A stretch of DNA of 32,000 bases from Dickeya dadantii NCPPB 898 (GTDB lineage Bacteria; Pseudomonadota; Gammaproteobacteria; Enterobacterales; Enterobacteriaceae): assembly GCF_000406145.1 (NCBI RefSeq), contig NZ_CM001976.1, positions 2,443,543 to 2,475,542 of the forward strand. The letters run 5' to 3'. This document shows, piece by piece, positions 4,539-30,400 of the stretch. Under the pieces are notes generated by a model that was not told the origin of the DNA, did not search any database, and saw only the letters and a program-made list of their open reading frames with translations. Position 1 is the first letter of the stretch. Each line of letters begins with the position of its first letter. The position numbers and the translations under genes are program-made.

Positions 4539-5324
4539 TTATAGAGCGACTTTGCGCTGAGTCCTGGCTTGTAACGCTTTAACCACAGCCTCCCCAAGCG
4601 CCGTTGCAGAAGCTGGGTTTTGTCCGGTAATTAAACGCCCATCAACAACAACGTTGTTCTCAAATATTGGTGCTTCTTCAAACTTTGCCCCGCCTTTCTT
4701 CAAAGCACCTTCCAGTTCAAATGGCACGATCTTGTCATACTGCCGGGAAACCTCTTCCGCTGCTGTAAATCCTGTGAGGCGACGACCTTTGATTAAGCTT
4801 TCACCGTTGCTGAGTTTCACATTTATGAGCCCTGCCGGGCCATGGCAAACGGCACTAATAACATCCTTGTTTTCGTACATAGTTCGCACAATATTATTGA
4901 GTTCAGTATTATTTACAAAATCCCACATCGGACCATGACCACCGACGAGCAGAATCGCAGAATATTTTGATGGGTCAACATCCGATAATTTAATCGTTTG
5001 ACCAAGCTTGTTTCGGTGTTGGGGGTTGGTCCAAAAATCCAGGCTAGCCTGATCTTTCAAGTCGAAACCATCGAAAGGAGCCAAGCCACCTTTGGGACTT
5101 GCAATGTCAAAGTCAAAACCCGCTTTATCAAAGACCTTTACTGGATGAGTCAATTCTGGAAACCAAAATCCCCCAACGAGATTTTCTGTTTTCTTATCCA
5201 GACTGGAGACGACAATTAATATCTTTTCCTGTTGTTGAGTTTCCTGGGCAGCCCCCGCAATAACAGATGCCGAGAATACGGTAATGGCGATGATGAGACG
5301 CACAAAATACGTTGCAAGTGACAT
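4539..5324 (-). CDS. Secreted/periplasmic DJ-1/PfpI (class I glutamine amidotransferase-like, Hsp31-type) protein
   Basis: Nucleophile-elbow motif ISAVCHGPAGL plus LLVGGHGPMWDF. I place the start at ATG 5324 (AAGGA 6 nt upstream), giving the signal peptide MSLATYFVRLIIAITVFSASVIAGAAQE. The track start at 5372 is a TTG without an SD. Low GC: 17 G+C in the 60-nt line at 4861. Confidence 0.8.
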   Translation of the reverse strand: MSLATYFVRLIIAITVFSASVIAGAAQETQQQEKILIVVSSLDKKTENLVGGFWFPELTHPVKVFDKAGFDFDIASPKGGLAPFDGFDLKDQASLDFWTNPQHRNKLGQTIKLSDVDPSKYSAILLVGGHGPMWDFVNNTELNNIVRTMYENKDVISAVCHGPAGLINVKLSNGESLIKGRRLTGFTAAEEVSRQYDKIVPFELEGALKKGGAKFEEAPIFENNVVVDGRLITGQNPASATALGEAVVKALQARTQRKVAL

Positions 5325-5503
5325 ATGATTTCCTTCGGATTGTTGGTGTGTCCTCACTGTATCTGAGTTCAAAACCCAGAGGTAGACGGCTAAAACGGAA
5401 CAGATTGTTTAAAAAAACATGCCAATAGCCTTGTATTAAGGTGAATTATTACCACAGAATATAAATACGCGAACGAGATGAAAATAATACGAGAGGATTC
5501 GAG

Positions 5504-6406
5504 ATGAGCCAAAACAATGATTTTGATGGGTTGCCGGAATTTCTGGCTATCTCGAAAAGGCTTAGTATTCGGAAAGCGGCTATCGATCTTGGCAAAACAC
5601 CAGGTTCAGTCAGTCAAGCGTTGCAGAAATTGGAGAATCGCCTTGGCATGCTCCTTTTTCATAGGACAACGCGTAAAATGGCATTGACAGAGGCCGGAAA
5701 GAACCTGCTCTTGAAGATAGAGCCCGCTGCGCGTGCAATTTCAGTAAGTCTCGAAGACGCGGTTCAGTCGTCAAAGGCTCCGGCTGGGACATTGAGGTTA
5801 ATCGTAGAGCGTCTGGCCTTACCGCATGTTATTGAACCTTTATTACCCGCATTCCGCCAGGAATGGCCAAATGTAAACCTGGATATTACTGTCAGTAATC
5901 GCCACAACAATTTTATTTCTGAGGGTTATGATGCGGGTATCTTGATCGGTTCATACATTGAGCAGGATATGATTGCGATACGACTTTCCAGGCCTTTTCA
6001 ATGGGCGGTTTTTGGGGCTCCAGCCTATTTCAAACTACATGGGAAACCTAAAGTCACCAATGATCTTGTTCATCATGAATGTATTCGGTTTCGTCGCCCG
6101 GAAAAAGGCGATATTTATCGTTGGGAATTTATTGAGAACAATGAAACAGTACGTATTGACCCGACAGGAGCCATTACGGTCAATGATGGTGAACTTATGC
6201 GTAACCTTGCTGTTAAAGGGGTCGGCCTCATCTACTCGTCTACATTCCACACTTCGCGCGAACTGGCAACGGGAAGCCTGGAGCCCGCACTGCTTGACTG
6301 TTCCCCAGGAAATGATGGTCTTTTTCTCTATTTTTCGAAAGCAGGCAGAAATCAACCCAAGTTGCGCGCGTTTATTGAGACATGTTCCCGTATAATGAAT
6401 GTTTAA
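5504..6406 (+). CDS. LysR-family transcriptional regulator
   Basis: 300 aa. N-terminal wHTH (FLAISKRLSIRKAAIDLGKTPGSVSQALQKLENRLGMLLFHRTTRKMALTEAG) and a typical LysR substrate-binding C-terminus. Divergent from the DJ-1/PfpI gene. GAGG SD 7 nt upstream. Confidence 0.9.
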   Translation: MSQNNDFDGLPEFLAISKRLSIRKAAIDLGKTPGSVSQALQKLENRLGMLLFHRTTRKMALTEAGKNLLLKIEPAARAISVSLEDAVQSSKAPAGTLRLIVERLALPHVIEPLLPAFRQEWPNVNLDITVSNRHNNFISEGYDAGILIGSYIEQDMIAIRLSRPFQWAVFGAPAYFKLHGKPKVTNDLVHHECIRFRRPEKGDIYRWEFIENNETVRIDPTGAITVNDGELMRNLAVKGVGLIYSSTFHTSRELATGSLEPALLDCSPGNDGLFLYFSKAGRNQPKLRAFIETCSRIMNV

Positions 6407-7874: not shown

Positions 7875-8966
7875 ATGGGATTCAAATGCGGTATCGTTGG
7901 GCTGCCTAACGTGGGTAAATCCACTCTGTTCAACGCGCTGACCAAAGCCGGTATCGAAGCGGCCAACTTTCCGTTTTGTACTATCGAACCCAACACCGGC
8001 GTAGTGCCGATGCCGGACCTGCGCCTCGACCAGTTGGCCGAGATTGTCAAACCGCAGCGTACCGTCCCCACCACCATGGAGTTTGTGGATATCGCCGGTC
8101 TGGTGAAAGGCGCCTCCAAAGGCGAAGGTCTGGGCAACCAGTTCCTGACCAACATCCGTGAAACCGAAGCCATCGGCCACGTGGTACGTTGCTTTGAAAA
8201 TGAAAATATCATCCACGTTGCCGGTAAAGTGAACCCTGCCGATGATATTGATACCATCAACACTGAGCTGGCGTTGTCGGATCTGGACACCTGTGAACGC
8301 GCGCTGCATCGCGTACAGAAGAAAGCCAAAGGCGGCGATAAAGACGCGAAAGTTGAACAAGCCGCGCTGGAAAAATGCCTGCCGCAGTTGGAAAACGCCG
8401 GTATGCTGCGCGCGCTGGATCTAAGCGCGGAAGAGAAAGCGGCGATCCGCTATCTGAGCTTCCTGACCCTTAAACCAACAATGTACATTGCCAACGTTAA
8501 TGAAGACGGCTTCGAGAACAACCCTTATCTGGATCAGGTTCGCGAAATCGCAGCGAGAGAAGGTTCCGTGGTAGTGCCGGTATGTGCCGCGGTTGAATCC
8601 GACATTGCTGAACTTGATGATGAAGAGCGCGATGAATTCATGGCGGAGCTGGGTCTGGAAGAGCCAGGCTTAAACCGCGTAATCCGCGCGGGTTATGAAT
8701 TGCTGAACCTGCAAACCTACTTCACCGCTGGCGTAAAAGAAGTTCGCGCCTGGACCATCCCGGTTGGCGCCACTGCCCCACAGGCGGCCGGTAAAATTCA
8801 CACCGACTTCGAAAAAGGGTTTATTCGCGCCCAGACTATCGCCTTTGATGATTTCATCACTTACAAAGGTGAACAAGGCGCCAAAGAAGCCGGTAAAATG
8901 CGTTCAGAAGGGAAAGAATATATCGTTAAAGATGGCGATATTATGAACTTCTTGTTTAACGTCTAA
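7875..8966 (+). CDS. ychF: Ribosome-binding ATPase YchF (Obg-like)
   Basis: 363 aa. [23 protein letters not shown] (G1 motif), a TGS-like C-terminus, and pth-ychF synteny. Confidence 0.98.
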
Positions 8967-9057
8967 ATTTTCTTCTGTTGTCTTCATGAGGCTTCACTGA
9001 TTCTCATGAAGGCCGACAAACCCATAAAATCCACGCAGTTGCGTGGATTTTTCTTTT
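8958..9057. repeat. Left copy of the ~100-bp direct repeat bounding the ychF-linked island (last codons of ychF + hairpin + ychF terminator)
   Basis: AACGTCTAAATTTTCTTCTGTTGTCTTCATGAGGCTTCACTGATTCTCATGAAGGCCGACAAACCCATAAAATCCACGCAGTTGCGTGGATTTTTCTTTT recurs at 17462-17560 with one 1-nt indel and two substitutions. Both copies are preceded by TT(T/C), so each encodes F-N-V-stop. Confidence 0.9.
9027..9057 (+). terminator. Rho-independent terminator of ychF
   Basis: Stem AAATCCACGC / GCGTGGATTT around a short AGTT loop, followed by TTTTTCTTTT. Lies inside the direct repeat, so a second copy sits at 17530-17560. Confidence 0.8.
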
Positions 9058-9123
9058 CGTAATGTCTCATGTAATGGACTGACCCCCTCCCCGGTAGACG
9101 ATCCTGGACTGGCCCTGGACTGA

Positions 9124-9195
9124 CCCCACAACCGCAAACAGCCCCATGAATCCCTGAATAATCTGACGCCAGCAGAATACCGGCATGATGGCTGA
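9124..9195 (+). pseudogene. Relic of the 3' end of an rve/DDE (IS3-family-like) transposase gene
   Basis: The frame reads [23 protein letters not shown]-stop, the typical (YN..)RPH.SL..LTP.EY transposase tail. About 75% nt-similar to an inverted copy at 15728-15791. No upstream transposase body. Confidence 0.5.
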
Positions 9196-9633
9196 AAAAC
9201 CGGATATATCAAAAAGTACGTGGAACCAAAACGGGTGTGCTTACACCATCACACACTGACAAAATAGGTCGCAGAGAAAATAGCCCGATAATATTTAACC
9301 GTTTGTTTTTTTAATGAATATATTCTTCGCGGGAAATATTAGTCGCATTATCCTGTCAATAACTGGCTTATCGAAGCTGGAACAATCCACCACCTTATTG
9401 CTGCAATAAATAGCGCTAATAGACGTTGTGAACTGCTGGTAAATCCCAAGTTTCATGTGGCTTAGGTGGCTTTTATCCTTTATCGTATAAAGCATTAAGA
9501 CAATTCTTAAGGCTATATATCATGTCGACGATAAGTTGGCCTGGTAGCCCTATTCAGCAGGATTTGTGTTCACCGGGCTCCTCCATCAATAAACATGGCC
9601 TGAGTGATATATTCTCATTGGAGACGGAATTTT

Positions 9634-12600
9634 ATGAGCATTAAGGCATATGTCAGTGTCGCCCATAAGCTGGGATTCACTTCGCACCAAAATGCGGTTC
9701 CCCTGTTACGTGAACTGGTATTACATAACGAATCTGACCAAACGTACCAGGATTTAACGCTGCATTTGCAGACAACACCTGCGGTGCTGGAAGCAAAACA
9801 GTGGAAAATTGATCGCTTGCTTCCTCACTCCTCACTAGATATTCGCGATCGCGATGTTAAGCTCGACGCAAAATGGCTGGCTGAACTGACTGAAAGCGTG
9901 GTGTGCGAAATTACGCTGTGTTTACGTCAGGGAGAGGATGAACTTTTTACCGTTAATTATCCGCTTGAAGCCCTGGCAAAAAATGAATGGGGCGGCGATG
10001 CAATGGTTGAATTGTTGCCGTCTTTCATTACGCCTAACGACCCTGCGATTGATCGCCTGCTTAAAGCCACATCGGATGTTCTTCGTAGTGCAGGGAAAAG
10101 AGAAGCCCTGGATGGCTACGAAAGCAAATCCAGAACTCGGGTCTGGGAGATAGCCTCCGCCCTCTGGACTGCCATCTGCAACATGAATATCAGTTACGCT
10201 CTTCCCCCTGCCAGCTTTGAACACAACGGTCAGAAGATTCGTACACCCGGAGCCATCGTGGAGGCAAGGGTCGCCACATGTCTGGATACCACACTCTTAT
10301 TTGCATCCACGCTAGAACAACTCGGTCTAAATCCGCTGGTCTTTTTAACGGAAGGTCATGCTTTTGTCGGCCTGTGGTTGCAACCGCAAGAGTTTGCGCA
10401 ACTCGTCACCGAAGATGTCTCCGCCGTACGTAAGCGAATCGATTTAAAAGAGATGGTCGTATTTGAAACGACGCTGGCAACACAAGCGTACCCGGCATCG
10501 TTTACTCAGGCTTCCGTAGAGGCTCTCCAGCATCTGACAGAAAAAAAATTCTACGCCGCCATTGATGTACGGCGTGCTCGAATGCAAAAAATCCGCCCGT
10601 TGGCGCTGGGAGCATTGTGTACGACAGGGCAGACTGCCGACACGGAACAGATCATTTCTCATGGATTTGAAGATGCGCCGCAGCTGCCTTCATTTGATAT
10701 TGAGATCGACATCACTGATGAAAAAGGTGCAACCAGCCGGCTGGTCCAATGGCAACGAAAATTGTTGGATTTAACAACCCGGAACCGCCTATTGCATCTG
10801 CCGGAAAGTGCGAAAGGCATCCGATTGGTATGTTCTAACCCTGGGATGCTTGAAGATAAACTTGCGGAAGGCAAGCGTCTGCGTATTGTCTCTTTGCCAA
10901 ATCTCGAAATGGGCGGTCGGGATGCAGAATTATACCAGCAACAGACGCATGAAAACTTACGTGATGAGTATGCACAAAACGCGCTGGAACGTGGCGAAGT
11001 CGTCTCCCCTCTTGAACAAGAACGCCTTGAATCTTCACTAATTGATCTCTATCGCAAATCCAAAAGTGACCTCGAAGAAGGCGGTGCCAATACACTTTTT
11101 CTGGCTGTCGGTTTCCTTAAATGGAAAAAGGCTGCCGATGACCCTAAGAGTTATTTCGCGCCACTCATTCTTCTGCCCATTCAGTTGGATCGGAAAAGTG
11201 CGCTCTCTGGTGTGACAATGCGCTTGCTGGAAGAAGAACCTCGCTTCAATCTGACGCTACTCGAGCTACTGCGTAACGATTTCGCGCTGACCATCAACGG
11301 GCTGGATGGCGAATTACCAACCGATGAAAGCGGTATTGATGTTGATGGTATATGGAATGTTATACGCCGCGCAGTCCGTGATATCCCGGGCTTCGAGGTC
11401 ACTCGCGATGTCGTGATTGGTACCTTTTCGTTCGCCAAATATCTAATGTGGAAGGATCTCGTCGACCGCACGCCGCAACTGATGGAAAGCCCGTTGGTCA
11501 AATACCTGATTGAGCGTGGACAGGAAAATGCCACGTTGCAAAAGAGCGGTGAAATCATAGATGTCGATAAACTAGATGACGAAATAGGAACACAGGAACT
11601 TTTTTTGCCATTACCTGCAGACTCGTCGCAAGTTGCAGCTGTAGTGGCATCGGCAAAAGGTCGCGATTTTGTGCTGGACGGGCCGCCTGGAACAGGCAAG
11701 TCGCAAACAATAGCCAATATGATTGCGCACAACCTTGCGCTGGGTAGACGCGTGCTGTTTGTGGCTGAAAAAAAAGCCGCTCTGGATGTCGTTTACCGCA
11801 GGTTGGAGGCGCAAGGATTAGGTGAGTTTTGCCTAGAATTACACTCCAGTAAAACCTCGAAGATGGATTTCCTCAAGCAACTCGAACGCGCGTGGGACGT
11901 ACGCGACGTGCTGACCACCCAGGAATGGGAAGAGGAAGCAAGCAAGTTGCAAACTCTTCGTGACAAGCTTAACGAAGTTGTCCGTTTGCTTCATAAACGT
12001 TGGCCTAACGGTTTAACGCTACATCATGCAATGGGTCGAGTTATAAAAGATGTCAGTGCAGCAACACCGCTATTTACATGGCCGGCTGATACGCTGCATA
12101 CCGCAGAACAGATGGAATATTTCAGGCAGATAGCCAGACGCCTGGAGCTTAACCGTGCTGCTTTTCAACAACACGGCGAACATTTTGCCGCCATTGCACA
12201 AACGGACTGGACGAACGGATGGCAGTCATCACTGATTGTCAGTGCGAAAGCTCTGCCCGGAAAAATAGAAAACCTAGAACAAGCGGCTGATGCGCTACTG
12301 CAGGCAAGTGGACTTGAACTGGACGTCAAAGAGCCAGCAAAACTGGCACAGCTGCTCGCTTTTTGCGAACTCCTGACCAAAGCAGGCGACATCGATCTCA
12401 GTTTTATGTTCACTCCCGATGCGACAGCCCGCATTCAGGCTGCCCATACAGCAATCGCCCTGCTGCAGGAGATAACCACCACTAAAGAACGGTTGTCAGT
12501 CAACTATCCTGCGGATAGCTGGCAACACGTCAACGTGCCGCAAATCCAACAAGCACTAACGCAAGCGGGTAAAAAGTTCTGGTTCTTCGCCACCAGCGCA

Positions 12601-15528
12601 CGCAAAAAAGTTATCCAGGGTGTAATGCAGCAACATGCGCTCAGTTCAGCACCGGATTTGGCTGCCGATTTACCTGTTATTGATCTACTGCAGCCGTTGT
12701 CACAACGTCTGACGGCGATAAGTAGCGAGACGGCAACGCTACCGGGCTGGAGCAGTCTGGCAACAGATTACACAAAATTAGCAGCGACGGTGGCACTCGC
12801 GGAAGAGATCCGCAACAAACTCGGTACGTTAGCGTCTTCACCACAACAACTTGCAGGGATTCGCACTGCCGTTAAAACCCTAGTCATTGATGCCAATGAT
12901 TTGCTGGGTGCGGCCGGTGTGGTTGCGAATTTATGCCAGAACCTTCGTACTGCACTTACCGGGTTTAGCGAAGCCAAAACAACCTTCTGTGGCCTGATAA
13001 AAACGCAAGAAGAAAATCCGTCTATCCCCACATTGCGGAACTGTGCGTTAAACATAATGCAGAATTCATCAGCACTGAAAGCATGGAGTGACTGGAGTCG
13101 CGTGCGGGAAGAAGCCATTTCTCAGGGGCTGATGCCCATGCTGGATGCGCTGGCTCATCTTGATACCTCAGAAACGAGTGCCTCAGAGATTTTCGAAACT
13201 GCCTATTGTCGCTGGTTCGCCTCATGGGTCATTGATTCGGAACCGCTACTGCATAATTTTGTTCCGGCCGAACATATGAGTGACATTGAGGCATATCGCC
13301 AGCATACCGATCGCCTAGCAAAGTTAACGGTTCGTTACATTCGTGCCCGCCTGTGTGGCGTGATCCCCGCAAAAAACGAAATAGACAAACAGGGTGGCTT
13401 TGCCTTACTGAAGCATGAACTACAGAAATCTCGTCGTCATAAGCCTGTTCGGCAAATGGCCGCAGAGATGGGCGATGCAATGTCGAAACTTGCACCTTGT
13501 ATGCTTATGAGCCCTCTTTCAGTAGCGCAATTTTTGCCTTCCAGCCAGGCTTTGTTTGATTTGGTGATCTTTGATGAAGCATCACAGATATCCCCCTGGG
13601 ACGCCATTGGCGCAATGGCTCGTGGTAAACAAGTTGTCGTGGCTGGCGACCCACGTCAGATGCCGCCAACCAGTTTCTTCAATCGTGGGGCAAGTGATGT
13701 GGACGATGATGTTGAAGAGGATATGGAAAGCATTTTGGATGAATGCCTTGCCGCCGGGTTATACAACCATAGCCTGAGCTGGCACTACCGTAGTCGCCAT
13801 GAAAGTTTGATCACCTTCTCTAACCACCGCTATTATGACGGGAACCTGATCACCTTCCCTGCGTCGGAAACGCGACAAAGTGCTGTTCAGTGGTGCAAAG
13901 TTGCTGGCGTTTATTCGAAAGGTAAAGGTCGTCACAATCAGGCCGAAGCCGAAGCCATCGTCGCAGAGACCGTAAAACGTCTGACGGATAAAAAATTTGT
14001 CGCTTCAGGTAAGTCGATTGGCATTATTACCCTGAATACCGAACAACAAAAACTGATCAATGACTTGTTGGATAGAGCCCGTCAGCAACATCCTGCAATT
14101 GAGCCCTTCTTTCAGCAAGAGCTTGAAGAACCCGTGGTGGTTAAAAACCTTGAGACAGTTCAGGGCGATGAGCGCGATCTGATTATGCTCGGTATTGGGT
14201 TCGGCCCTACAGAACCCGGTGCCAATACGATGTCCATGAGCTTTGGCCCACTCAATCGTGAAGGAGGCTGGCGACGCCTGAATGTTGCCGTCACGCGTGC
14301 GCGTCAGGAGATGATGGTATTTACCTCATTCGACTCTTCAATGATCGACCTCAATCGAACCAGCGCACGTGCTGTCGCCGACCTTAAGCATTTCATCGAA
14401 TTTGCTCAACGGGGCCCGGTAGCATTGGCACAGGCTGTTCGTGGTTCGGTTGGCGGCTATGACTCACCTTTTGAAGAAGCGGTTGCTAGTGGTCTGAGAA
14501 GAAAAGGCTGGCATGTTGTTCCGCAAATAGGTGTCTCCCGTTTCCGTATTGATCTGGGGATCGTTCATCCGGATAAACCGGGCGATTACCTGGTCGGCGT
14601 TGAGTGTGATGGCGCCACCTACCATAGCGCAGCCACAGCCCGCGATCGTGATAAAGTTCGCAGCGCTATCCTGCAAGGCCTCGGCTGGAAATTATTACGC
14701 CTCTGGTCAACGGAGTGGTGGATTGATAAAGAAGGTGCGCTTGAGCGACTTGATTCGGCCATTCGAGATCTGCTTGAAGAATCCAGAGCCACTGATGCAA
14801 TGCATACGGCGGAGGCAGAGGAACCTGCTGATATTAGCGGTGAAACAACCGCGATTGCAGAGTCGGATGATCTCCTCGTAACTACCGCCATTGCGCAGGG
14901 AGCCAACGATGAAGAAATCTCAGCACCTGTCGAAGTGATAAAGCAACCCAGTAAAAAGTCTGAAGACGACGATAGCGCAGAGACCGCTGTGCCAGAGCTA
15001 AAATACGCCTCATCACCGACCCCGGAAATTACCTTACCCGCTCAGGGGGCTAAATACATCGTTAATGACCTGCAAGAATGGAATAGCAGAGTTGATGCCG
15101 AACGCTTCTACATTGGTGGGTATGACGAAACGCTGAGAGGGCTCATCGACTCAGTGGTGAAAGCTGAATCTCCACTGCTGGAAACAACGTTGGTGCAGCG
15201 CATTGCACGCGTCCACGGTTTCAATCGTGCTGGCAGGCTAATTCGTGAAAGGGTGATGGAGTTGGTGGATCAGCATTATCATGTTGCGACAGATCATTTT
15301 GGTGAAAATTTTGTCTGGCAGTCCACAACTCAGCAGGCAGACTGGAATACATTCCGTTTGCCTGCGACAGAAAATGATATTCGCCAGATTGATGCTATCC
15401 CTGCAGAAGAGTTACGCGCATTGGTGCTGAATACAAAAGGCGAGTACAAAATTGCAGATATCACCCGATCATTGGGCATTAAGCGGCTAACAAGCCAAGC
15501 AAGACAAAAACTGGAGTCATTACTCTAA
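9634..15528 (+). CDS. Giant multidomain SF1 (Upf1/DNA2-like) helicase fused to a DUF559/Vsr-like PD-(D/E)xK endonuclease, with an N-terminal transglutaminase-like core, a DUF4011-like segment and a DUF3320-like C-terminus
   Basis: Single uninterrupted ORF; I prefer ATG 9634 (GGAG ~10 nt upstream) over track GTG 9604. TGase-like motifs: ARVATCLDTTLLFAS (Cys codon 10279-81) and TEGHAFVGLW (His codon 10357-59). DUF4011-like: WQRKLLDLTTRNRLLHL (~10750-10800). Helicase: Walker A GPPGTGKSQT (11680-11709), motif II VIFDEASQI (DE at 13573-78), then VVVAGDPRQMPPT, YRSRHESLITFSN, VETVQGDERD and LNVAVTRAR. Nuclease: FRIDLGIVHP...LVGVECDGATYH...LGWKLLRLWSTEWW (~14470-14725). After an acidic linker comes the DUF3320-like tail (~15050-15525). 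GC is lower than the core genes (26/60 in the line at 12001). Confidence 0.9.
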   Translation: MSIKAYVSVAHKLGFTSHQNAVPLLRELVLHNESDQTYQDLTLHLQTTPAVLEAKQWKIDRLLPHSSLDIRDRDVKLDAKWLAELTESVVCEITLCLRQGEDELFTVNYPLEALAKNEWGGDAMVELLPSFITPNDPAIDRLLKATSDVLRSAGKREALDGYESKSRTRVWEIASALWTAICNMNISYALPPASFEHNGQKIRTPGAIVEARVATCLDTTLLFASTLEQLGLNPLVFLTEGHAFVGLWLQPQEFAQLVTEDVSAVRKRIDLKEMVVFETTLATQAYPASFTQASVEALQHLTEKKFYAAIDVRRARMQKIRPLALGALCTTGQTADTEQIISHGFEDAPQLPSFDIEIDITDEKGATSRLVQWQRKLLDLTTRNRLLHLPESAKGIRLVCSNPGMLEDKLAEGKRLRIVSLPNLEMGGRDAELYQQQTHENLRDEYAQNALERGEVVSPLEQERLESSLIDLYRKSKSDLEEGGANTLFLAVGFLKWKKAADDPKSYFAPLILLPIQLDRKSALSGVTMRLLEEEPRFNLTLLELLRNDFALTINGLDGELPTDESGIDVDGIWNVIRRAVRDIPGFEVTRDVVIGTFSFAKYLMWKDLVDRTPQLMESPLVKYLIERGQENATLQKSGEIIDVDKLDDEIGTQELFLPLPADSSQVAAVVASAKGRDFVLDGPPGTGKSQTIANMIAHNLALGRRVLFVAEKKAALDVVYRRLEAQGLGEFCLELHSSKTSKMDFLKQLERAWDVRDVLTTQEWEEEASKLQTLRDKLNEVVRLLHKRWPNGLTLHHAMGRVIKDVSAATPLFTWPADTLHTAEQMEYFRQIARRLELNRAAFQQHGEHFAAIAQTDWTNGWQSSLIVSAKALPGKIENLEQAADALLQASGLELDVKEPAKLAQLLAFCELLTKAGDIDLSFMFTPDATARIQAAHTAIALLQEITTTKERLSVNYPADSWQHVNVPQIQQALTQAGKKFWFFATSARKKVIQGVMQQHALSSAPDLAADLPVIDLLQPLSQRLTAISSETATLPGWSSLATDYTKLAATVALAEEIRNKLGTLASSPQQLAGIRTAVKTLVIDANDLLGAAGVVANLCQNLRTALTGFSEAKTTFCGLIKTQEENPSIPTLRNCALNIMQNSSALKAWSDWSRVREEAISQGLMPMLDALAHLDTSETSASEIFETAYCRWFASWVIDSEPLLHNFVPAEHMSDIEAYRQHTDRLAKLTVRYIRARLCGVIPAKNEIDKQGGFALLKHELQKSRRHKPVRQMAAEMGDAMSKLAPCMLMSPLSVAQFLPSSQALFDLVIFDEASQISPWDAIGAMARGKQVVVAGDPRQMPPTSFFNRGASDVDDDVEEDMESILDECLAAGLYNHSLSWHYRSRHESLITFSNHRYYDGNLITFPASETRQSAVQWCKVAGVYSKGKGRHNQAEAEAIVAETVKRLTDKKFVASGKSIGIITLNTEQQKLINDLLDRARQQHPAIEPFFQQELEEPVVVKNLETVQGDERDLIMLGIGFGPTEPGANTMSMSFGPLNREGGWRRLNVAVTRARQEMMVFTSFDSSMIDLNRTSARAVADLKHFIEFAQRGPVALAQAVRGSVGGYDSPFEEAVASGLRRKGWHVVPQIGVSRFRIDLGIVHPDKPGDYLVGVECDGATYHSAATARDRDKVRSAILQGLGWKLLRLWSTEWWIDKEGALERLDSAIRDLLEESRATDAMHTAEAEEPADISGETTAIAESDDLLVTTAIAQGANDEEISAPVEVIKQPSKKSEDDDSAETAVPELKYASSPTPEITLPAQGAKYIVNDLQEWNSRVDAERFYIGGYDETLRGLIDSVVKAESPLLETTLVQRIARVHGFNRAGRLIRERVMELVDQHYHVATDHFGENFVWQSTTQQADWNTFRLPATENDIRQIDAIPAEELRALVLNTKGEYKIADITRSLGIKRLTSQARQKLESLL

Positions 15529-15536
15529 GTCAGACA

Positions 15537-15567
15537 GGCTATTCCTGGGTTATCGACAGGAATAGCC
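15537..15567 (+). terminator. Perfect 11-bp stem-loop 9 nt after the giant gene's stop (possible terminator or RNA-stability hairpin)
   Basis: GGCTATTCCTG-ggttatcga-CAGGAATAGCC. There is no immediate U-tract; a T8 run lies ~25 nt further on. Confidence 0.4.
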
Positions 15568-15601
15568 ATCATTCAATTCTTCAGTCCCTTGTTTTTTTTC
15601 C

Positions 15602-15733
15602 CACCTGCGCAAATTTGACCGCCTTGGTCGTAATGCGATGGATATTCGAAAAACAGTGGAACAGCTGGCGACTTCCGATATACGTGTTAATTGCCTAGCA
15701 CTCGGAGAAGTGGATTTAACCAGCCCTGCCGGT
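15602..15733 (+). pseudogene. Internal fragment of a serine recombinase (resolvase/invertase) gene
   Basis: The frame reads [44 protein letters not shown]. This fits the resolvase pattern (k)lDRLgR...l...v..L...g......l.e.iDtstpaG. There is no N-terminal catalytic Ser region and no C-terminal HTH, and the sequence changes identity right after SPAG. Confidence 0.6.
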
Positions 15734-15791
15734 ACTCTTCCGGTGTCAGGTTATTCAGGGATTCGTGAGGCCGTGACCAGCTCCTCATTGA
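15728..15791 (-). pseudogene. Second relic of an rve/DDE transposase 3' end, inverted relative to 9124-9195
   Basis: The minus strand reads (M)[21 protein letters not shown]..., sharing [10 protein letters not shown](A/E)EYR with the left relic. The junction with the resolvase fragment is ambiguous by a few nt. Confidence 0.45.
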
Positions 15792-16041
15792 TTAATACTC
15801 GGCTACGTTAGTGACGCTTAAAAACTGCTTTCAAAGAATCGCAAACTTCCGCTCATCGCTCATTGCGCCGCTCAGATACTTCGCATTGTCGACTCTATAA
15901 AGGATAGAGTTCAATCACTATTAGCTGTTCTATTTAACTGTAAGACGCAGTAACTCCCCGCTGGGGGGTTTGACCTGCTCCCCATTGATTAACACACGAC
16001 GATGTTAGTAATGTCTTCATCAGCAACATGAGGACAACCCC

Positions 16042-16305
16042 ATGAAGAAGCGTTTTTCCGACGAACAGATCATCAATATTCTTCGCGAAGCCGAGGCGGG
16101 TGTTTCCGCCCGCGAACTTTGCCGTAAGTACGCCATCTCCGACGCCACGTTTTATACGTGGCGTAAGAAGTTTGGTGGCATGGAATTACCTGAAGTAAAA
16201 AGGCTTAAGTCACTTGAAGAAGAGAACGCCCGCCTCAAGAAGCTGCTCGCCGAAGCCATGCTGGATAAAGAGGCACTACAGGTGGCTTGGGACCGAAAGT
16301 ACTGA
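16042..16305 (+). CDS. IS3-family transposase OrfA (HTH + leucine zipper)
   Basis: [48 protein letters not shown]...[22 protein letters not shown] is the typical IS407-group OrfA. Confidence 0.9.
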
Positions 16306-17162
16306 CGACAGACCAGAAGCGGGAAGCCGTGACAGTGATGTGCAAAGCGACAGGTCTGTCGCAACGGCGTGCCTGCAGGCTGACAGGTTTGTCCCTGTCG
16401 ACCTGCCGTTATGATGCGCACCGCCCGGCTACTGATGCGTATCTGTCTGCACGTATCACCGAACTGGCAATGGAACGCCGACGTTTCGGTTACCGGCGTA
16501 TCTGGCAGCTTCTGCGTCGTGAAGGCCTTTGCGTTAACCACAAACGGGTCTACCGCATCTATCATCTCAATGGCCTGGGCGTAAAACGCAGACAGCGCCG
16601 TAAGGGTCTGGCGACTGAGCGGCTTCCGCTTCTTCGCCCGGATGCGCCGAACCTGACATGGTCGATGGATTTTGTCATGGATGCACTTGCCAGCGGCCGC
16701 CGGATTAAGTGCCTGACTTGTATGGATGATTTCACGAAAGAATGTCTGACGATCACTGCTGCTTTCGGTATTTCAGGCGTTCAGGTCACGCGTATTCTGG
16801 ACAGCATCGCGCTCTTTCGTGGCTATCCGGCGACAATAAGAACCGATCAGGGCCCGGAATTTACTTGCCGCGCGCTCGAACAATGGGCCTTTGAGCATGG
16901 TGTGGAGTTGCGACTTATCCAGCCAGGTAAGCCAACGCAGAGCGGATTTATTGAGAGTTTCAACGGTCGCTTTCGGGATGAATGCCTGAATGAACACTGG
17001 TTCAGCGATATTCTTCATGCCCGGAAAATCATTAATGACTGGCGGCAGGACTATAATGAGTCCAGACCTCATTCATCGCTGAATTACCAGACGCCGTCTG
17101 AATTTGCAGCAAGCTGGAGAAATGGAAAATTAGAAGGTAAACAAACCGACATTACTAACTGA
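16287..17162 (+). CDS. IS3-family transposase OrfB (DDE/rve catalytic domain), probably made as an OrfAB fusion by -1 frameshifting
   Basis: -1 frame relative to orfA. This frame is open from 16269, so any frameshift must occur between 16269 and 16303. DDE context: [27 protein letters not shown]. Tail [18 protein letters not shown]. Confidence 0.9.
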
Positions 17163-17194
17163 TCGTTGTATCTAATACTGGGGGCAGGTCAGTT

Positions 17195-17370
17195 TGCGCT
17201 GACGTACCGTCACAGTACGTATTGAGTGTCTGTGTTTTCCCTAGGTAACTCTACGGGCTGGTTGCGTTTGAATGTGTAGCGGTACATATTCAGATAAACG
17301 GCCCCCGGCGACACAGTCATCTCGAAGACATTAGTCCAAAATGGATAAACAGGTGTTGTGGTAGCTAGCC
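17195..17370 (-). pseudogene. Tn3-family transposon end: terminal inverted repeat (split by the IS) plus a tnpA 3' relic
   Basis: Joining 15965-15970 (GGGGTT) to 17195-17226 gives GGGGTTTGCGCTGACGTACCGTCACAGTACGTATTGAG. This is 38 nt, starts with GGGG, ends in an ACGT..AG-like motif and resembles the gamma-delta/Tn3 IR as remembered. A minus-strand frame reads ...FEMTVSPGAVYLNMYRYTFKRNQPVELPRE...stop (stop at 17212-17210, inside the IR), like the Tn3-family TnpA C-terminus (SP.gw.hIN..G.Y.F). Confidence 0.4.
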
Positions 17371-17461
17371 TTAGAGGAAGACACAAATCAAAGTGAGTAC
17401 ATGAATGAGTATAAAAATAAATAAACTATTTATCAAAATTTTAAACTTAAAATCACAGTTC

Positions 17462-17560
17462 AACGTCTAATTTTCTTCTGTTGTCTTCATGAGGATTCAC
17501 TGAATCTCATGAAGGCCGACAAACCCATAAAATCCACGCAGTTGCGTGGATTTTTCTTTT
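17462..17560. repeat. Right copy of the ~100-bp direct repeat (pseudo-3' end of ychF + hairpin + terminator copy)
   Basis: See 8958-9057. Differences: TAA-TTTTC versus TAAATTTTC, GGATTCACTGAATC versus GGCTTCACTGATTC. The terminator copy is at 17530-17560. Confidence 0.9.
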
Positions 17561-17711
17561 TATGCTGTCTTACCAGGTCTTGTGGAGGCGCGTTGAAAAA
17601 CGCGTATAAACAGTTTCCATCTTTATGGTAGTCGGGTACAACAGCATTATAAGAAATGTATAAGAAACCATGATGCTCGCAGATATTCAGTTATGAGCAT
17701 AATTTTTTTCG

Positions 17712-25445: not shown

Positions 25446-27491
25446 TTATTCCACCAGTCCGCTTACCCGCAACACCCGCCGGTCGACCGCCTCCGCCAGC
25501 ACCGTGCTGTGCTTCCCCACGCAGCCGAGGCTGAACGCGTGTTTGGCGCGGGTAATACCGGTGTACACCAGTTCGCGGGTCAGGATCGGGCTTAAAGAAT
25601 CCGGCAGCAGCAAGGCGGTGTGGGCGAATTCCGACCCCTGGGATTTGTGCACCGTCATGGCGAACACCGTTTCCACCGCGGGCAGTCGCCCCGGCAGCAC
25701 CCAGCGGATACCCGATGAGCCATCGCCGGCCGGAAACGCCACCCTGGTCGCCCACCCCCATGAACCGTCCGGCTGGAGCAGCGGCACCTGTAGGGTGATG
25801 CCGATATCGCCGTTCATCAGCCGCTGGCTATAATCGTTGCGGGTCACCATCACCGGCCGCCCCGGATACCAGCCTTGCCAGGCCGCCAGCAAGCCGTCCC
25901 GATACAGCAGTTGGGCGATGCGCCCATTCATACTGTCGACGCCCCACGGCCCGTTGCGCAACGCGCACAACAGTTGGAACTGGCCGAAGGCATCCAGAAT
26001 CTGCGCCGCCCAGATGTCGAACTCGCTTTGCGGCGCCGTCAGCGCCGGCCGAGTCGAGGCCATCCGTCTCAGGTAGTTGCCGTAGCCCACCGGCGCCGCC
26101 GCAGCGGGCTGAGCGCCGAACCGATCGGCGGCGCCGTCAATAACCCATTCACGCAGCGCGCGGTTATCATTCGCCGTCAACGTCAGGCGCGCCAGGTCGG
26201 CATACCCCTGCCGCCAGACAGACGCCAACGCCGCCGCATCGCCGGCGTTCACCGCCTCCGCCAGTTGGCCGATGCCGCTGTCAGCGCCAAAGCGGTAGCT
26301 GTGACGCAGCATGGCGATGGATTGATCCAGCGCGCTGCCTTGCGGGTCGAGCAGCGAATCGTCCGGCGCGTCCCCCGCCACCTCGCGTAACCAGTCGCGG
26401 GTCTGCGGCAGGTAATGCCCTTGTGCGGCGCGCTGGCACAGTTCGCCCATCAATGCGCCGGCTTCCACCGACGCCAGTTGATCTTTATCGCCCAGCAGAA
26501 TCAGGCGGGACCGGGCCGGCATCGCCGCCAGCAGCGCCGCCATCATCTCCAGATCCACCATCGACGCTTCATCCACCACCAGCACATCCAGCATCAACGG
26601 ATTATCGGCGTGATGACGGAAATGCCGGGTATCCGGCCGGCTGCCCAGCAACCGGTGCAGGGTCACCACCTCGCTATTGATATGCTCCCGAATAACCTCT
26701 CCCTGCGCCAGCCCATCCAGCGTCAGGCCGGCAATGGCCCCGGCAATCGACTCGTTCAGACGGGCCGCCGCCTTGCCGGTGGGCGCCGCCAGCCGAATCC
26801 GCAACGGCTTGCCGTGCTGTTCCATCGCCAGCGACTGCAACAGCGCCAGCAGTTTCACCACGGTGGTGGTTTTCCCGGTGCCCGGCCCGCCGGTGATGAT
26901 GCTGAAGGCACTGCCCGCCGCCAGCGCGCAGGCCAGTTTCTGCCAGTTGGCGGAGCCGGCCGCGGTGGCAGGAAACAGCGCATCCAACCGCTGGCGCAGC
27001 GCCGCTGGCGTTATCGCCGCCCGCAGCGCGTCGTTTTGTGTCAGTTGCTGCGTAATGGCGTGGCGCACATCCTGCTCGTATCGCCAGTAACGGCGCAGAT
27101 ACAGACGCGCGCCGACCAGCACCAGCGGCGTGCTGCCTTCCCCCGACGATACCAGTTGCGGCTGTTGCAACGCCGCCTGCCAGGACGACAGGGTAACGCC
27201 CGCCAGAACCTCCGCCGGGCGCGCAATCTTACGATTTTCACTGCGATCGCCTTCCGGCGGCAGCGCCAATGAAAACCCGCTGTCGGCAAGCGTGGCGTCC
27301 AGATCGAGGCACACATGCCCGCGCCCAAGCTGATAGCTGACCAGCGCCGCGCCCAGCAGCAACAAGGGCGACGCCTCCGGGCACTCCTGATGCAGAAAGC
27401 GCACCAACGCCCGATCCAGCTCCCGCAACCAGCCGCACTCAACCCACTGGTCCAGCAACAGGGTTAATTCGTCATAACGGGTTATGTTCAT
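25446..27491 (-). CDS. recD: Exodeoxyribonuclease V alpha subunit RecD
   Basis: 681 aa. Walker A ITGGPGTGKTTTV, LAAPTGKAAARL, VLVVDEASMVD, LGDKDQLASVEAG, AMTVHKSQGSEF, YTGITRAK. Collinear with E. coli RecD but longer. Start overlaps the recB stop (ATGA). Confidence 0.93.
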   Translation of the reverse strand: MNITRYDELTLLLDQWVECGWLRELDRALVRFLHQECPEASPLLLLGAALVSYQLGRGHVCLDLDATLADSGFSLALPPEGDRSENRKIARPAEVLAGVTLSSWQAALQQPQLVSSGEGSTPLVLVGARLYLRRYWRYEQDVRHAITQQLTQNDALRAAITPAALRQRLDALFPATAAGSANWQKLACALAAGSAFSIITGGPGTGKTTTVVKLLALLQSLAMEQHGKPLRIRLAAPTGKAAARLNESIAGAIAGLTLDGLAQGEVIREHINSEVVTLHRLLGSRPDTRHFRHHADNPLMLDVLVVDEASMVDLEMMAALLAAMPARSRLILLGDKDQLASVEAGALMGELCQRAAQGHYLPQTRDWLREVAGDAPDDSLLDPQGSALDQSIAMLRHSYRFGADSGIGQLAEAVNAGDAAALASVWRQGYADLARLTLTANDNRALREWVIDGAADRFGAQPAAAAPVGYGNYLRRMASTRPALTAPQSEFDIWAAQILDAFGQFQLLCALRNGPWGVDSMNGRIAQLLYRDGLLAAWQGWYPGRPVMVTRNDYSQRLMNGDIGITLQVPLLQPDGSWGWATRVAFPAGDGSSGIRWVLPGRLPAVETVFAMTVHKSQGSEFAHTALLLPDSLSPILTRELVYTGITRAKHAFSLGCVGKHSTVLAEAVDRRVLRVSGLVE

Positions 27492-30400
27492 GCCGTCGCC
27501 TCCGTTTCGCCGCTAAACAGGCGATCCAGCGCCTCAATCAGCGATCGGTCCGGCCGCTCGGCGCACACGCCGCCGCCCGGCGCCTGACTGCCGCGCAGGA
27601 ACAGGTATAACGCGCCGCCGACGTGACGGTCGTAGTCGTAATCCGGCAGGCGGGATTTCAGCAAGCGGTGCAGCGCGAACAGATACAGCGCCAGTTGCAG
27701 ATCGTAACGGTGATCCAGCATGTCGCTCGCCATACGCGGTGGGTCATAGTCGGCGGCGTCCGCCCCCAGCCAGTTGGATTTGTAGTCCAGCACGTAGTAG
27801 CGCCCCTGATGTTCAAACACCAAATCGATAAACCCTTTCAGCATGCCGTTAAGCTGTTCACGCATCAGCGCCGCACGCGGTTCACCCGCCAGCGTGGCGG
27901 CCCTGACCTGTTGATCCAATATCTGGGTGTCGACCTGATTGAGCGCAAACCAGAACTCCATTTCCACCTGATACTGCGTCAGCCCGGCCAGCGAGACTGC
28001 GCTGCCGGGTTGCGTCGGCAACGCCAGTGGCTGGCTAAGCAGCGTCATCAACCAGTCGGTGAGCATCGGTATCCACTGCGTCCAGCCTTGCCGGTTACAG
28101 CGCCGCGCCACCTGATCCTCCACCCGGGGCCGATCCGCCGCCAGCAAGGCGAAGCCCTCTTTCCCGGCCCACTCCAGCAGGCCGTGCAGAAAACTGCCCG
28201 GTGCCGCGCCGCGTGGAAAACTGTACATGTCGAAGCCGGACGGCAACGGCGGCAGACGCTCCGTCGACGCCTGCGGTTCGCTAAAGGTTTCCTGCTTCGC
28301 GCTCTGCACTTCGGGCTCGTCGCCCGCAGCAGGTTCACGAAACTCGCGGTAATGCCCTTCCGGTGCCAGTTGTAAACCGGAATAGCTGGTGATACGCCAG
28401 CGGTGACTGCGCATATCCGGCAACGGCGGCTCCTGCCCCAACGCCGGCGTATGCAGCTCGGCGCGATAGACAGCGTCATCCGTCTCCGGCAACGGCGCAA
28501 TCTGGCTGTCCGCGCCGCACCAGGTCGACAGTTGTTGCGTCAGTTGCGCCGGTTCCAGCGGTTCGCCGGCGCCGAGCAGGTAACCAGGCGCGCTTTTCTC
28601 CAGCTCTTTCAGCGGCGCCATGCCAAGCCACATGGCGTAGCGGGCGCGGGTCAGCGCCACATAAAATTTACGCAGGTCCTCGCCCAGCCGCTCATGGTCG
28701 GCACGCTGCACCGCCTCGTCGCTGGCAATCAACTCAAGGCGCGGCTTCGCGTCATCATCATGAAATTTCAGCGGCACGTCCCGGTGGCTGACGGTGCGAA
28801 ACGCACAGGCAAACGGCAGAAACACCAGCGGATACTCCAGCCCTTTGGACTTGTGGACGGTGACCACCTTCACCAGATCGGCATCGCTTTCCAGCCGCAG
28901 TTTCAGGGTGTCGCCGCCGGGGTTATCCGCCTGGCGCTGCTCCGCCAGATAGCGGATCAGCGCGTGCTCGCCGTCCAGATGCACGCTGGCCTGTTGCAGC
29001 AATTCCGACAGGTGCAGCATATCGGTCAGCGCGCGGGTATTATCGGCGGCCAGCAGCCGGCGCGGCACATCGAAATCCCACATTAGCCGCCGCAGCATCG
29101 GCAACACGCCTTGCTGTTGCCAGCAGCGCTGGTAGTGGTCAAATTGCATCACCCGGCGTTCCCACTCCTGCTCGTCGTGGTTTAAGCGGTCGAGCGCCTG
29201 CCAGCTCAGCCCCAGCGCTGGGGTCGCCAGCGCGGCGCGCAGCAGCCGATCGTTCTCTGGGTCGGCGCAGGCCGCCAGCCAGCAGTGCAGTTCGCCGGCC
29301 TGCGGACTGTCGAACACCGACTCCCGGTCCGACAGATACACGCTGCGCACGCCACGGGCGGAAAGTTGCGCCCGCACCGCCATCGCTTCGCGCCCGGTAT
29401 TGACCAGCACCGCCATATCCCCCGGTTTGACCGGGCGCAGCGGCTGCCCCGGTACGGCAAAACCGGCCCGGCCTTGCCCGCCGAGTTGCAGCAGCCGCAC
29501 CATTTCGCGGGCGCAGCCGGCAGCCATGCGCTGGCGGTATTCCGCCGACGACAGCGGTTCGTCCGTCGCCAGCGTCCAGCAGGTCAACGCCGCGGCGTCA
29601 GCGCCGTCCAGCACCCACGCCTCGTCGCGGCCGTTGGCCTGCACCGGTAAAAACGGCACCGGATTGTCGCCGTCCGGCTGACGAAACAGAAACGCCCCCG
29701 CGCCGTCGGCACGATTTTCCGCCTGCATGAACACCTGATTGACGGCGCCGACCATCGCCTGGGTGGATCGGAAGTTAGTGCCCAGCGTGTAATGCCGCCC
29801 GTCGGTATCGCGGCGGGCGCGCAAATAGGTATAGATATCGGCGCCGCGAAACGCGTAAATCGCCTGTTTCGGGTCGCCGATCAGAATCAGCCCTTGCTGC
29901 GGGTCGTTGTCCGCCACCCGGTAAAGGGTATCGAAAATGCGGTATTGCAGCGGATCGGTGTCCTGAAACTCGTCGATCATCGCCACCGGGAATTGACGGC
30001 GAATACGCTGCGCCAGCCGTTCGCCGTTGTCGCTGCGCAGCGCGGCATCCAGCCGGGTCAGCAGGTCCTGAAACCCCATTTGCGCCCGGCTCTCCTGCTC
30101 GTGGCGAAACCGCTGGCTGACCCAACGGCAGGCGTGCCGCAGTAACTGACTGCGCGGCTCCGGTAATTCGCTCAGCTGCTGCGGCAACGTCTCCATCGCG
30201 GTCAAGGCCGGATGCTGCGGCGCCTCTTCCGGCACTTTCCAGCACTCCCGCAACCCTTGCGGGGTCAGCCGCGTCCAGCCGGTGCCGATATCCAGCGTCG
30301 TCTCATCGCTGGTGGCCCAGTGGTGCAGTTTGTCCAGCCACGGCTCGAAATAGCGGGCCTGCAGCTTATGACCATTCGCCTTTTTCTGTGCCACCGCGTC

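Follow-up and report, generated by a model that had tools for sequence, protein, structure and literature searches.

A Dickeya dadantii copy of ProA, probably a stand-alone anti-phage helicase-nuclease acquired horizontally as a 6.6-kb single-gene module

The DNA analyzed here (“the window”) comprises 32,000 nt of the Dickeya dadantii NCPPB 898 genome (contig NZ_CM001976.1, positions 2,443,543 to 2,475,542), and the feature under study is one large gene that lies between ychF and a GH30 gene (Table 1). Judged by profile matches, this gene is a member of a named, curated anti-phage family, ProA, and not a new kind of system. It is probably the D. dadantii copy of ProA, a stand-alone anti-phage helicase-nuclease that was acquired horizontally as a 6.6-kb single-gene module. 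A preliminary description, made from the DNA letters alone, had proposed an autonomous single-gene defence protein gained by horizontal transfer; that proposal was supported by the family membership, the lack of a conserved partner, the patchy distribution and the mobility detailed below.

The protein was searched against NCBIfam and PADLOC profiles for a described system, as had been suggested earlier, and both collections returned a match. The NCBIfam equivalog model NF058533.1, “anti-phage protein ProA”, was matched with 2203.1 bits (cutoff 1500), aa 15-1934 being aligned to profile positions 2-1879 of 1903. The N-terminal domain, DUF4011, the split superfamily 1 (SF1) helicase, the nuclease and the tail were all covered by this model, and no difference from it was detectable at the sequence level; only the host (Dickeya dadantii) and the insertion site are added here. 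The preliminary description had regarded the domain combination as lacking an assigned function. That view was abandoned, as the architecture, including the N-terminal domain, is that of the ProA model itself. In PADLOC, the candidate PDC-S37 was matched with E = 0 and 1191.7 bits (profile positions 7-1529 of 1550 aligned to aa 367-1963). The PDC-S37 profile begins at DUF4011 and leaves the N-terminal 366 aa of the Dickeya protein uncovered; PDC systems in PADLOC are candidates and not validated systems. A D. dadantii database entry labelled only “DUF3320 domain-containing protein” matches the protein at 100% identity, and this public label could be replaced by ProA.

Membership in other known systems was also considered. 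Hhe, a DUF4011 protein encoded by a single helicase-nuclease gene of E. coli with a Vsr-type nuclease, shares with the Dickeya protein the core of DUF4011, Upf1-like helicase and Vsr-like nuclease, as well as the single-gene logic. The comparison to Hhe was made by profile models only, and membership was rejected: the protein scored 815.8 bits against the NCBIfam Hhe_antiphage equivalog cutoff of 2000, the alignments to the Hhe models were partial (mainly aa 1126-1739), and the PADLOC Hhe model gave 580 bits, under PDC-S37. The best models were ProA and PDC-S37, and the ProA model, which covers the first ~366 aa, scored far higher than that of Hhe. Nhi, Hna, HmaA and type II Mokosh resemble ProA in carrying an ATP-driven helicase and a nuclease in one polypeptide, with sensing tied to phage replication proteins or intermediates, but they differ in their helicases (DUF2075 SF1, SF2, Snf2) and in their nucleases (HsdR-like, C-terminal PD-(D/E)xK, NOV_C, PLD). 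Type II Mokosh (a COG1112 helicase with a PLD nuclease) was rejected, as MkoA and MkoC matched the helicase core only (46-99 bits); no PLD domain was detected in the Pfam scan of the protein. Nhi (DUF2075 SF1 with an HsdR-like nuclease) and Hna (SF2 with a C-terminal PD-(D/E)xK nuclease) were likewise rejected, since neither was matched in PADLOC at E ≤ 0.01 and the helicase is of the AAA_11/AAA_12 type. Sequence matches in the PDB were to parts of the helicase core of UPF1/NAM7, IGHMBP2, SEN1 and DNA2 (E 1e-7 to 1e-4). These proteins have the helicase motif set in common with ProA, but in ProA ~500 aa are inserted between motifs Ia and II, and the domains that flank the helicase are unrelated. 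Beyond such remote Upf1-like helicases, no solved structure of a ProA relative was returned by the PDB sequence search.

The gene was confirmed to be a single open reading frame (ORF) of 1,964 codons with no break, and its product is 100% identical across 35 database entries. A GTG at 9604 is an alternative start to the ATG at 9634, the stop codon occupies 15526-15528, and a Shine-Dalgarno-like GGAGAC is found 8 nt upstream of ATG 9634. The ORF scan agreed with the preliminary description that no co-oriented ORF of at least 60 aa flanks the gene and that a 40-codon ORF is present at 9522-9644. The G+C content (GC) of the gene is 0.50, and that of its third codon positions (GC3) is 0.48, as against a GC3 of 0.59-0.80 in the core genes nearby. 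Thus, the claim that the gene is lower in GC than its neighbors held for the core genes when judged by GC3, but ychF (GC 0.526) differs little. The codons that had been put forward for mutagenesis were exact: K689 is encoded at 11698-700, D1314/E1315 at 13573-78, E1657 at 14602-04, and C216 at 10279-81.

All motifs that had been read by eye were located in the translation: LLDLTTRNRLL (aa 377-387), GPPGTGKSQT (683-692), FDEASQ (1313-1318), GDPRQMPPT (1338-1346), QGDERD (1510-1515), VAVTRAR (1551-1557) and RIDLG...VECDGATYH (1638-1664). The segment described as DUF4011-like was above the threshold for Pfam DUF4011. For aa 360-662, the AlphaFold2 (AF2) model had a predicted local distance difference test (pLDDT) score of 70, and no match to this model was found in the PDB (best E 0.16). 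Around the Walker A motif, Pfam AAA_30 and AAA_19 were found above threshold at aa 664-725. Further downstream, AAA_11 (aa 1302-1347, 58.8 bits) and AAA_12 (aa 1366-1564, 62.3 bits) exceeded the cutoff of 27. With motifs I, II, III, V and VI present and AAA_11 and AAA_12 above the gathering score, the helicase was assigned to the Upf1-like SF1B class; the Pfam and PDB matches agree with the complete Upf1/DNA2-type motif set that had been reported. The large insertion that splits the helicase was less conserved in the alignment of homologues, and no Pfam family was detected in it at E ≤ 1 apart from a chance DIL match. The restriction-endonuclease-like module, previously named DUF559/Vsr-like, was real, but MTES_1575 (PF18741; 119.4 bits, cutoff 38.2) is the better name for it; the overlapping DUF559 match was weaker (20.6 bits). 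The tail was correctly described, Pfam DUF3320 being above threshold. In homologues of 42-96% identity, residues K689, D1314/E1315, R1555/R1557, D1640/E1657/D1659 and C216/H242/E278 were invariant.

The N-terminal region had been described as carrying a transglutaminase (TGase)-like Cys...His core. The AF2 model of aa 1-345 (pLDDT 77.6) featured a β-sandwich at aa 1-113 followed by an α/β domain at aa 124-317. The Foldseek matches of the sandwich were Ig/Fn3-like sandwiches and the one at the N-terminus of animal transglutaminases. For aa 1-345, the PDB matches were TG2, FXIIIa, TG3, protein 4.2, the putative cysteine protease 3isr and PNGase; these matches were all weak (E 1e-3 to 1e-2), with a TM score of only 0.22-0.26. 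No Pfam match for a TGase-like domain was obtained at threshold in the Dickeya protein. Among 20 homologues, subthreshold matches were obtained to DUF553 in seven (best E 0.014) and to Transglut_core in two (E 0.0027). C216, H242 and E278 were invariant in the 18-24 homologues compared. The conserved core thus stood, while its assignment drew only on subthreshold Pfam and weak fold matches; because of this combination of evidence, the transglutaminase-like call is plausible but not established.

With a profile of the N-terminal domain, 5,488 cluster representatives were retrieved at E ≤ 1e-3, and 1,453 were still retrieved at E ≤ 1e-30. The 150 best matches carried the domain at or near the N-terminus, and about two-thirds of these 150 were proteins of ~1,200-2,700 aa (most 1,700-2,300 aa); the shorter sequences were read as fragments. 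That the N-terminal module is an active Cys216-His242-Glu278 enzyme, serving as a sensor or switch by cleaving, deamidating or cross-linking a phage protein or ProA, is conceivable, if doubtful. If this were true, a protein-level infection signal would be coupled to the firing of the helicase-nuclease via the N-terminal enzyme, and DUF4011, with no match to a solved structure, would be a second unexplored part. Consistent with such activity, the three residues do not vary across phyla and purifying selection acts on the domain. To our knowledge, no characterised helicase-nuclease defence has a TGase/papain-like module.

The boundaries of the transferred unit were taken from comparisons to other genera and species. 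The span 9247-15863 was found with 90-94% nucleotide identity in D. fangzhongdai and in Enterobacter hormaechei, at other chromosomal sites; in D. fangzhongdai it adjoins the phn operon. As the same span recurs elsewhere, it defines a 6.6-kb single-gene module. The Kosakonia radicincitans copy is 82% identical at the nucleotide level from 9385 onward and is located between a methyl-accepting chemotaxis protein (MCP) gene and an EamA gene. In E. hormaechei, ProA is split by a ~2-kb insertion (12532-14489 of locus L048), with a 5-bp overlap that corresponds to 12161-12165 of the window, and in two K. pneumoniae plasmids (H11 and H12) it is broken by IS21/ISEc10. Loss of the gene is therefore tolerated in these hosts.

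Alignment of the upstream regions revealed conserved blocks within 9470-9633: CTTTATCGTATAAAGCATTAAGACAATTCTTAAG and CACCGGGC...GCCTGAGTG. A TCTC/GAGA mini-hairpin that takes in the Shine-Dalgarno sequence is conserved across genera. Promoter-like sites were noted at 9295-9324 and 9495-9523; neither a strong consensus promoter nor a canonical terminator was found for ProA. The 40-codon ORF was tried as a conserved leader peptide and rejected, as its start is lost or its frame is broken in D. fangzhongdai, Kosakonia and E. hormaechei. No Rfam family was detected in the leader (9247-9633), and covariation gave no support for a leader RNA (alifold term unfavorable, four sequences). In the adjacent ychF terminator hairpin, subthreshold Rfam Leu_leader matches were observed at 9000-9071 on both strands (28 and 26 bits, gathering score 50); these are most likely an artefact of the terminator shape.

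The insertion of ~8.5 kb between direct repeats, which had been noticed from the letters, was real: a within-window search placed the repeats at 8966-9067 and 17469-17570 (102 nt, 94% identical, spacing 8503). The transposase and resolvase relics reported around the gene were real as well. An intact insertion sequence (IS) of the IS3 family lies 445 bp 3′ of ProA; it has ends TGACCTGC... and a 3-bp GTT target duplication, and it is strain-specific, being missing from the otherwise identical loci L084 and L086. States of the site were compared among D. dadantii assemblies with identical YchF. The minimal ychF-GH30 site, with a single repeat copy, was found in L082 and L088. D. dadantii 3937 has no ProA, only a 570-bp scar with an IS relic between two repeat copies, in which the equivalent of window positions 9058-9245 is joined to that of 17190-17457. 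In L084 and L086, the scar is accompanied by the ProA segment (9246-15972), and in L090 a pentapeptide-repeat gene (11390-12046) stands in place of ProA. The site is thus empty, scarred or otherwise filled in other D. dadantii strains, and the patchiness that had been anticipated was borne out. In D. dadantii, this intergenic site between ychF and GH30 forms a small hotspot of variation, and it could be marked as such in the annotation of the species. As a separate observation, CM001982.1 features two copies of the whole prmC-ychF-GH30 region ~48.7 kb apart (2446079-2467170 and 2494758-2515849; L083 and L084), with ProA in one and not in the other; this doubling is either a true large duplication or a scaffolding artefact.

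Full-length homologues were found in at least 548 species (548 of the 600 matches listed, among 185,579 species representatives). Proteobacteria, Verrucomicrobiota, Acidobacteriota, Chlorobiota, Myxococcota and other phyla were represented among the matches listed. Two architectures were observed: the DUF3320 tail is present in proteins of ~1,950 aa, whereas proteins of ~1,710-1,760 aa end before it. Pseudomonas syringae GR12-2 carries both a long form (1,945 aa) and a short form without the tail (1,743 aa; loci L016 and L022).

To look for partner genes, 1,147 neighboring ORFs of 80 loci were clustered, and no family occurred in more than 12 of the 80. A conserved partner was rejected, the recurrent neighbors being LysR regulators, sensor kinases, and ABC and MFS transporters. 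No small upstream ORF was conserved among the 80 related loci, and ProA is solitary on IncF plasmids, in Kosakonia and in D. fangzhongdai. ProA is autonomous, without an obligatory partner gene. Three type I methyltransferases, two S subunits and two MADS mad5 genes were counted among the 118 nearest neighbors of 33 loci (no background control), and in L027 an HsdM gene adjoins the ProA homologue; these counts suggest some defence association.

Plasmid carriage bears on what ProA may act against. Full-length ProA was present in 73 plasmid records, many of them conjugative IncF plasmids; the Klebsiella and Raoultella IncF copies are at 78% identity, and the solitary gene is near IS26 and repA. 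By contrast, only one of 50,697 phage genome records held ProA at ≥80% coverage, and IS and resolvase fragments move together with the gene. These observations would fit a protein that mainly restricts plasmids or mobile elements, or one that serves its carrier element in inter-element competition, like the DdmDE-type helicase-nucleases. Such a role is unlikely to be the principal one, as the curated name of the family is anti-phage and phage-defence genes are commonly plasmid-borne too.

For ProA as an anti-phage helicase-nuclease, a mechanism can be proposed by analogy with Hhe, Nhi and Hna, every step of which is a proposal. Hna is an autoinhibited dimer that is released by phage single-stranded-DNA-binding protein, and Nhi degrades phage replication intermediates. 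For Hhe, seven class II genes of T7 DNA metabolism are the candidate triggers; the toxicity of a Bas63 gene depends on the presence of hhe, and counter-genes are carried by phages. By analogy, ProA would be held inactive in uninfected cells. DUF4011 and the Upf1-like SF1B motor would load on phage replication or recombination DNA (single-stranded regions, ends or intermediates), and the motor would translocate with ATP, licensing the MTES_1575/Vsr-like PD-(D/E)xK nuclease to cut DNA. This cutting would block phage replication, and strong activation may also arrest the cell. The N-terminal β-sandwich and the TGase/papain-like domain would most likely form a regulatory or sensing module. Since it is absent from the short-form homologues, the DUF3320 tail may be an optional accessory.

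Several points weigh against an anti-phage role of this kind. The nature of the proposed substrate (DNA or RNA), the polarity, the trigger, and whether phages are killed directly or infection is abortive are all drawn from analogy, and Upf1-like helicases act on RNA too. A primary description behind the name ProA was sought and not found in the literature searched, a 2026 NAR paper on domain-centric discovery included; therefore, it is the curated label that determines the experimental status of ProA here, and the term “anti-phage” draws on that NCBIfam label together with the candidate status in PADLOC. For Hhe, one study proposed depletion of NAD+ or adenine, which is a misfit with a simple nuclease model. 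The Dickeya locus is outside any defence island, its neighbors being housekeeping genes, and defence neighbors were present in a minority of the related loci only. Finally, the gene seems to be stably inherited by descent in some groups of Pseudomonas, where synteny is kept (L030-L033 and L056).

Such stable synteny would also be expected of a helicase-nuclease that serves housekeeping or DNA repair, for instance as a Vsr-like enzyme that acts on mismatches or processes replication forks. Repair is among the uses of the Vsr/DUF559-type fold, replication intermediates are processed by SF1B helicases like DNA2, and a large DUF4011 gene that follows a small hypothetical gene was reported as core in P. 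aeruginosa, where it forms a flank of the defence hotspot cDHS1 (PMC10250203). Against these stand the absence of the gene from the same site in D. dadantii 3937 and other strains, its differing chromosomal sites in close relatives, and its foreign codon composition. Megablast and blastn detected no ProA in 5,426 complete E. coli genomes, bar a 46-nt IS3 fragment. Together with the anti-phage curation and the tolerated insertions in E. hormaechei and the K. pneumoniae plasmids, these findings make a housekeeping or repair function very unlikely.

The ratio of nonsynonymous to synonymous substitution rates (dN/dS) was 0.10 in comparison to the 96%-identical D. fangzhongdai copy and 0.06 in comparison to that of Kosakonia. 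By region, it was 0.02-0.04 in DUF4011, 0.03 in the nuclease, 0.05-0.08 in the helicase and 0.08-0.13 in the N-terminal domain; thus, three putative catalytic centers are maintained. In the acidic linker (aa 1716-1815), dN/dS was ~1 against D. fangzhongdai and 0.07 against Kosakonia, the latter with saturated dS. All domains but the acidic linker are under strong purifying selection. That the Dickeya copy is a silent passenger, unexpressed or inactive and left behind by IS-mediated rearrangements, as the decayed transposase and resolvase fragments, the fresh IS3 insertion downstream and the lack of a strong promoter or canonical terminator might indicate, is barely credible given the intact and invariant reading frame, the low dN/dS, and the leader blocks and ribosome-binding site (RBS) conserved across genera.

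With ProA regarded as an anti-phage protein, its locus matters for the use of phages to control soft-rot Dickeya, since a strain that carries the gene may not be as sensitive to phage as one that lacks it. ProA belongs to a large family, which spans at least 548 species and ~1,450 clusters at the 50% identity level and is carried by many clinical IncF plasmids. The family is also of mechanistic interest, as two conserved modules of ProA, the TGase-like N-terminus and DUF4011, have putative roles and no structure has been solved in the family.

Table 1. Coordinates of the features of the ProA locus (window positions; aa numbering as in the 1,964-residue protein)
Feature	Position	Strand	Details and basis
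Left direct repeat copy, 104 nt	8954-9057	+	ychF 3′ end and terminator hairpin 9026-9051
IS3-type transposase C-terminal relic	9138-9185	+	Inverted repeat with minus-strand relic near 15687-15788
Transferable module	9247-15863	+	387-nt leader, ProA, 335 nt downstream with resolvase/transposase relics
Leader/promoter region	9247-9633	+	Alignment of five upstream regions; blocks conserved across genera
ProA-family helicase-nuclease coding sequence	9634-15528	+	1,964 aa; ORF and RBS, NCBIfam, PADLOC
N-terminal β-sandwich	9634-9972	+	aa 1-113; AF2 strands 3-113
Putative transglutaminase/papain-like α/β domain	10003-10593	+	aa ~124-320; C216, H242, E278
DUF4011 domain	10759-11271	+	aa 376-546; Pfam 151.7 bits; conserved block to ~660
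SF1B helicase RecA1 part, Walker A GPPGTGKS (K689)	11614-12003	+	aa ~661-790; Pfam AAA_30/AAA_19; PDB IGHMBP2, UPF1
Insertion between helicase motifs Ia and II	12004-13518	+	~500 aa, aa ~791-1295
Helicase motifs II-VI (DEAS 1314-1317, GDPRQMPP, QGDERD, VAVTRAR)	13519-14343	+	aa ~1296-1570; Pfam AAA_11/AAA_12; PDB SEN1, NAM7/UPF1, DNA2
MTES_1575/Vsr-like PD-(D/E)xK endonuclease	14470-14763	+	aa 1613-1710; D1640, E1657, D1659
Acidic linker, poorly conserved	14779-15078	+	aa ~1716-1815; translation
DUF3320 domain	15103-15249	+	aa 1824-1872; Pfam 39-43 bits; in C-terminal tail
Serine-recombinase (resolvase) relic	15608-15800	+	Pfam Resolvase E 1.1e-4, profile 70-130 of 145
IS3-type transposase C-terminal relic	15687-15788	-	Overlaps resolvase relic; rve_3 E 0.019
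Intact IS3-family element	15973-17190	+	orfA 16042-16305, orfB 16287-17162; Pfam HTH_Tnp_1, rve
Right direct repeat copy	17458-17560	+	Repeat search, blastn against other strains

Two further observations were made elsewhere in the window, the overall GC of which is 0.54. The genes recD and recB (25446-31162) have a GC of 0.65-0.66 and a GC3 of ~0.79. Between prs and ychH, a divergent pair of DJ-1/PfpI and LysR genes (4539-6406) has a GC3 of 0.41-0.43, far under that of the core, yet none of the D. dadantii assemblies examined lacked it; the pair looks like an acquisition that is older and has become fixed.

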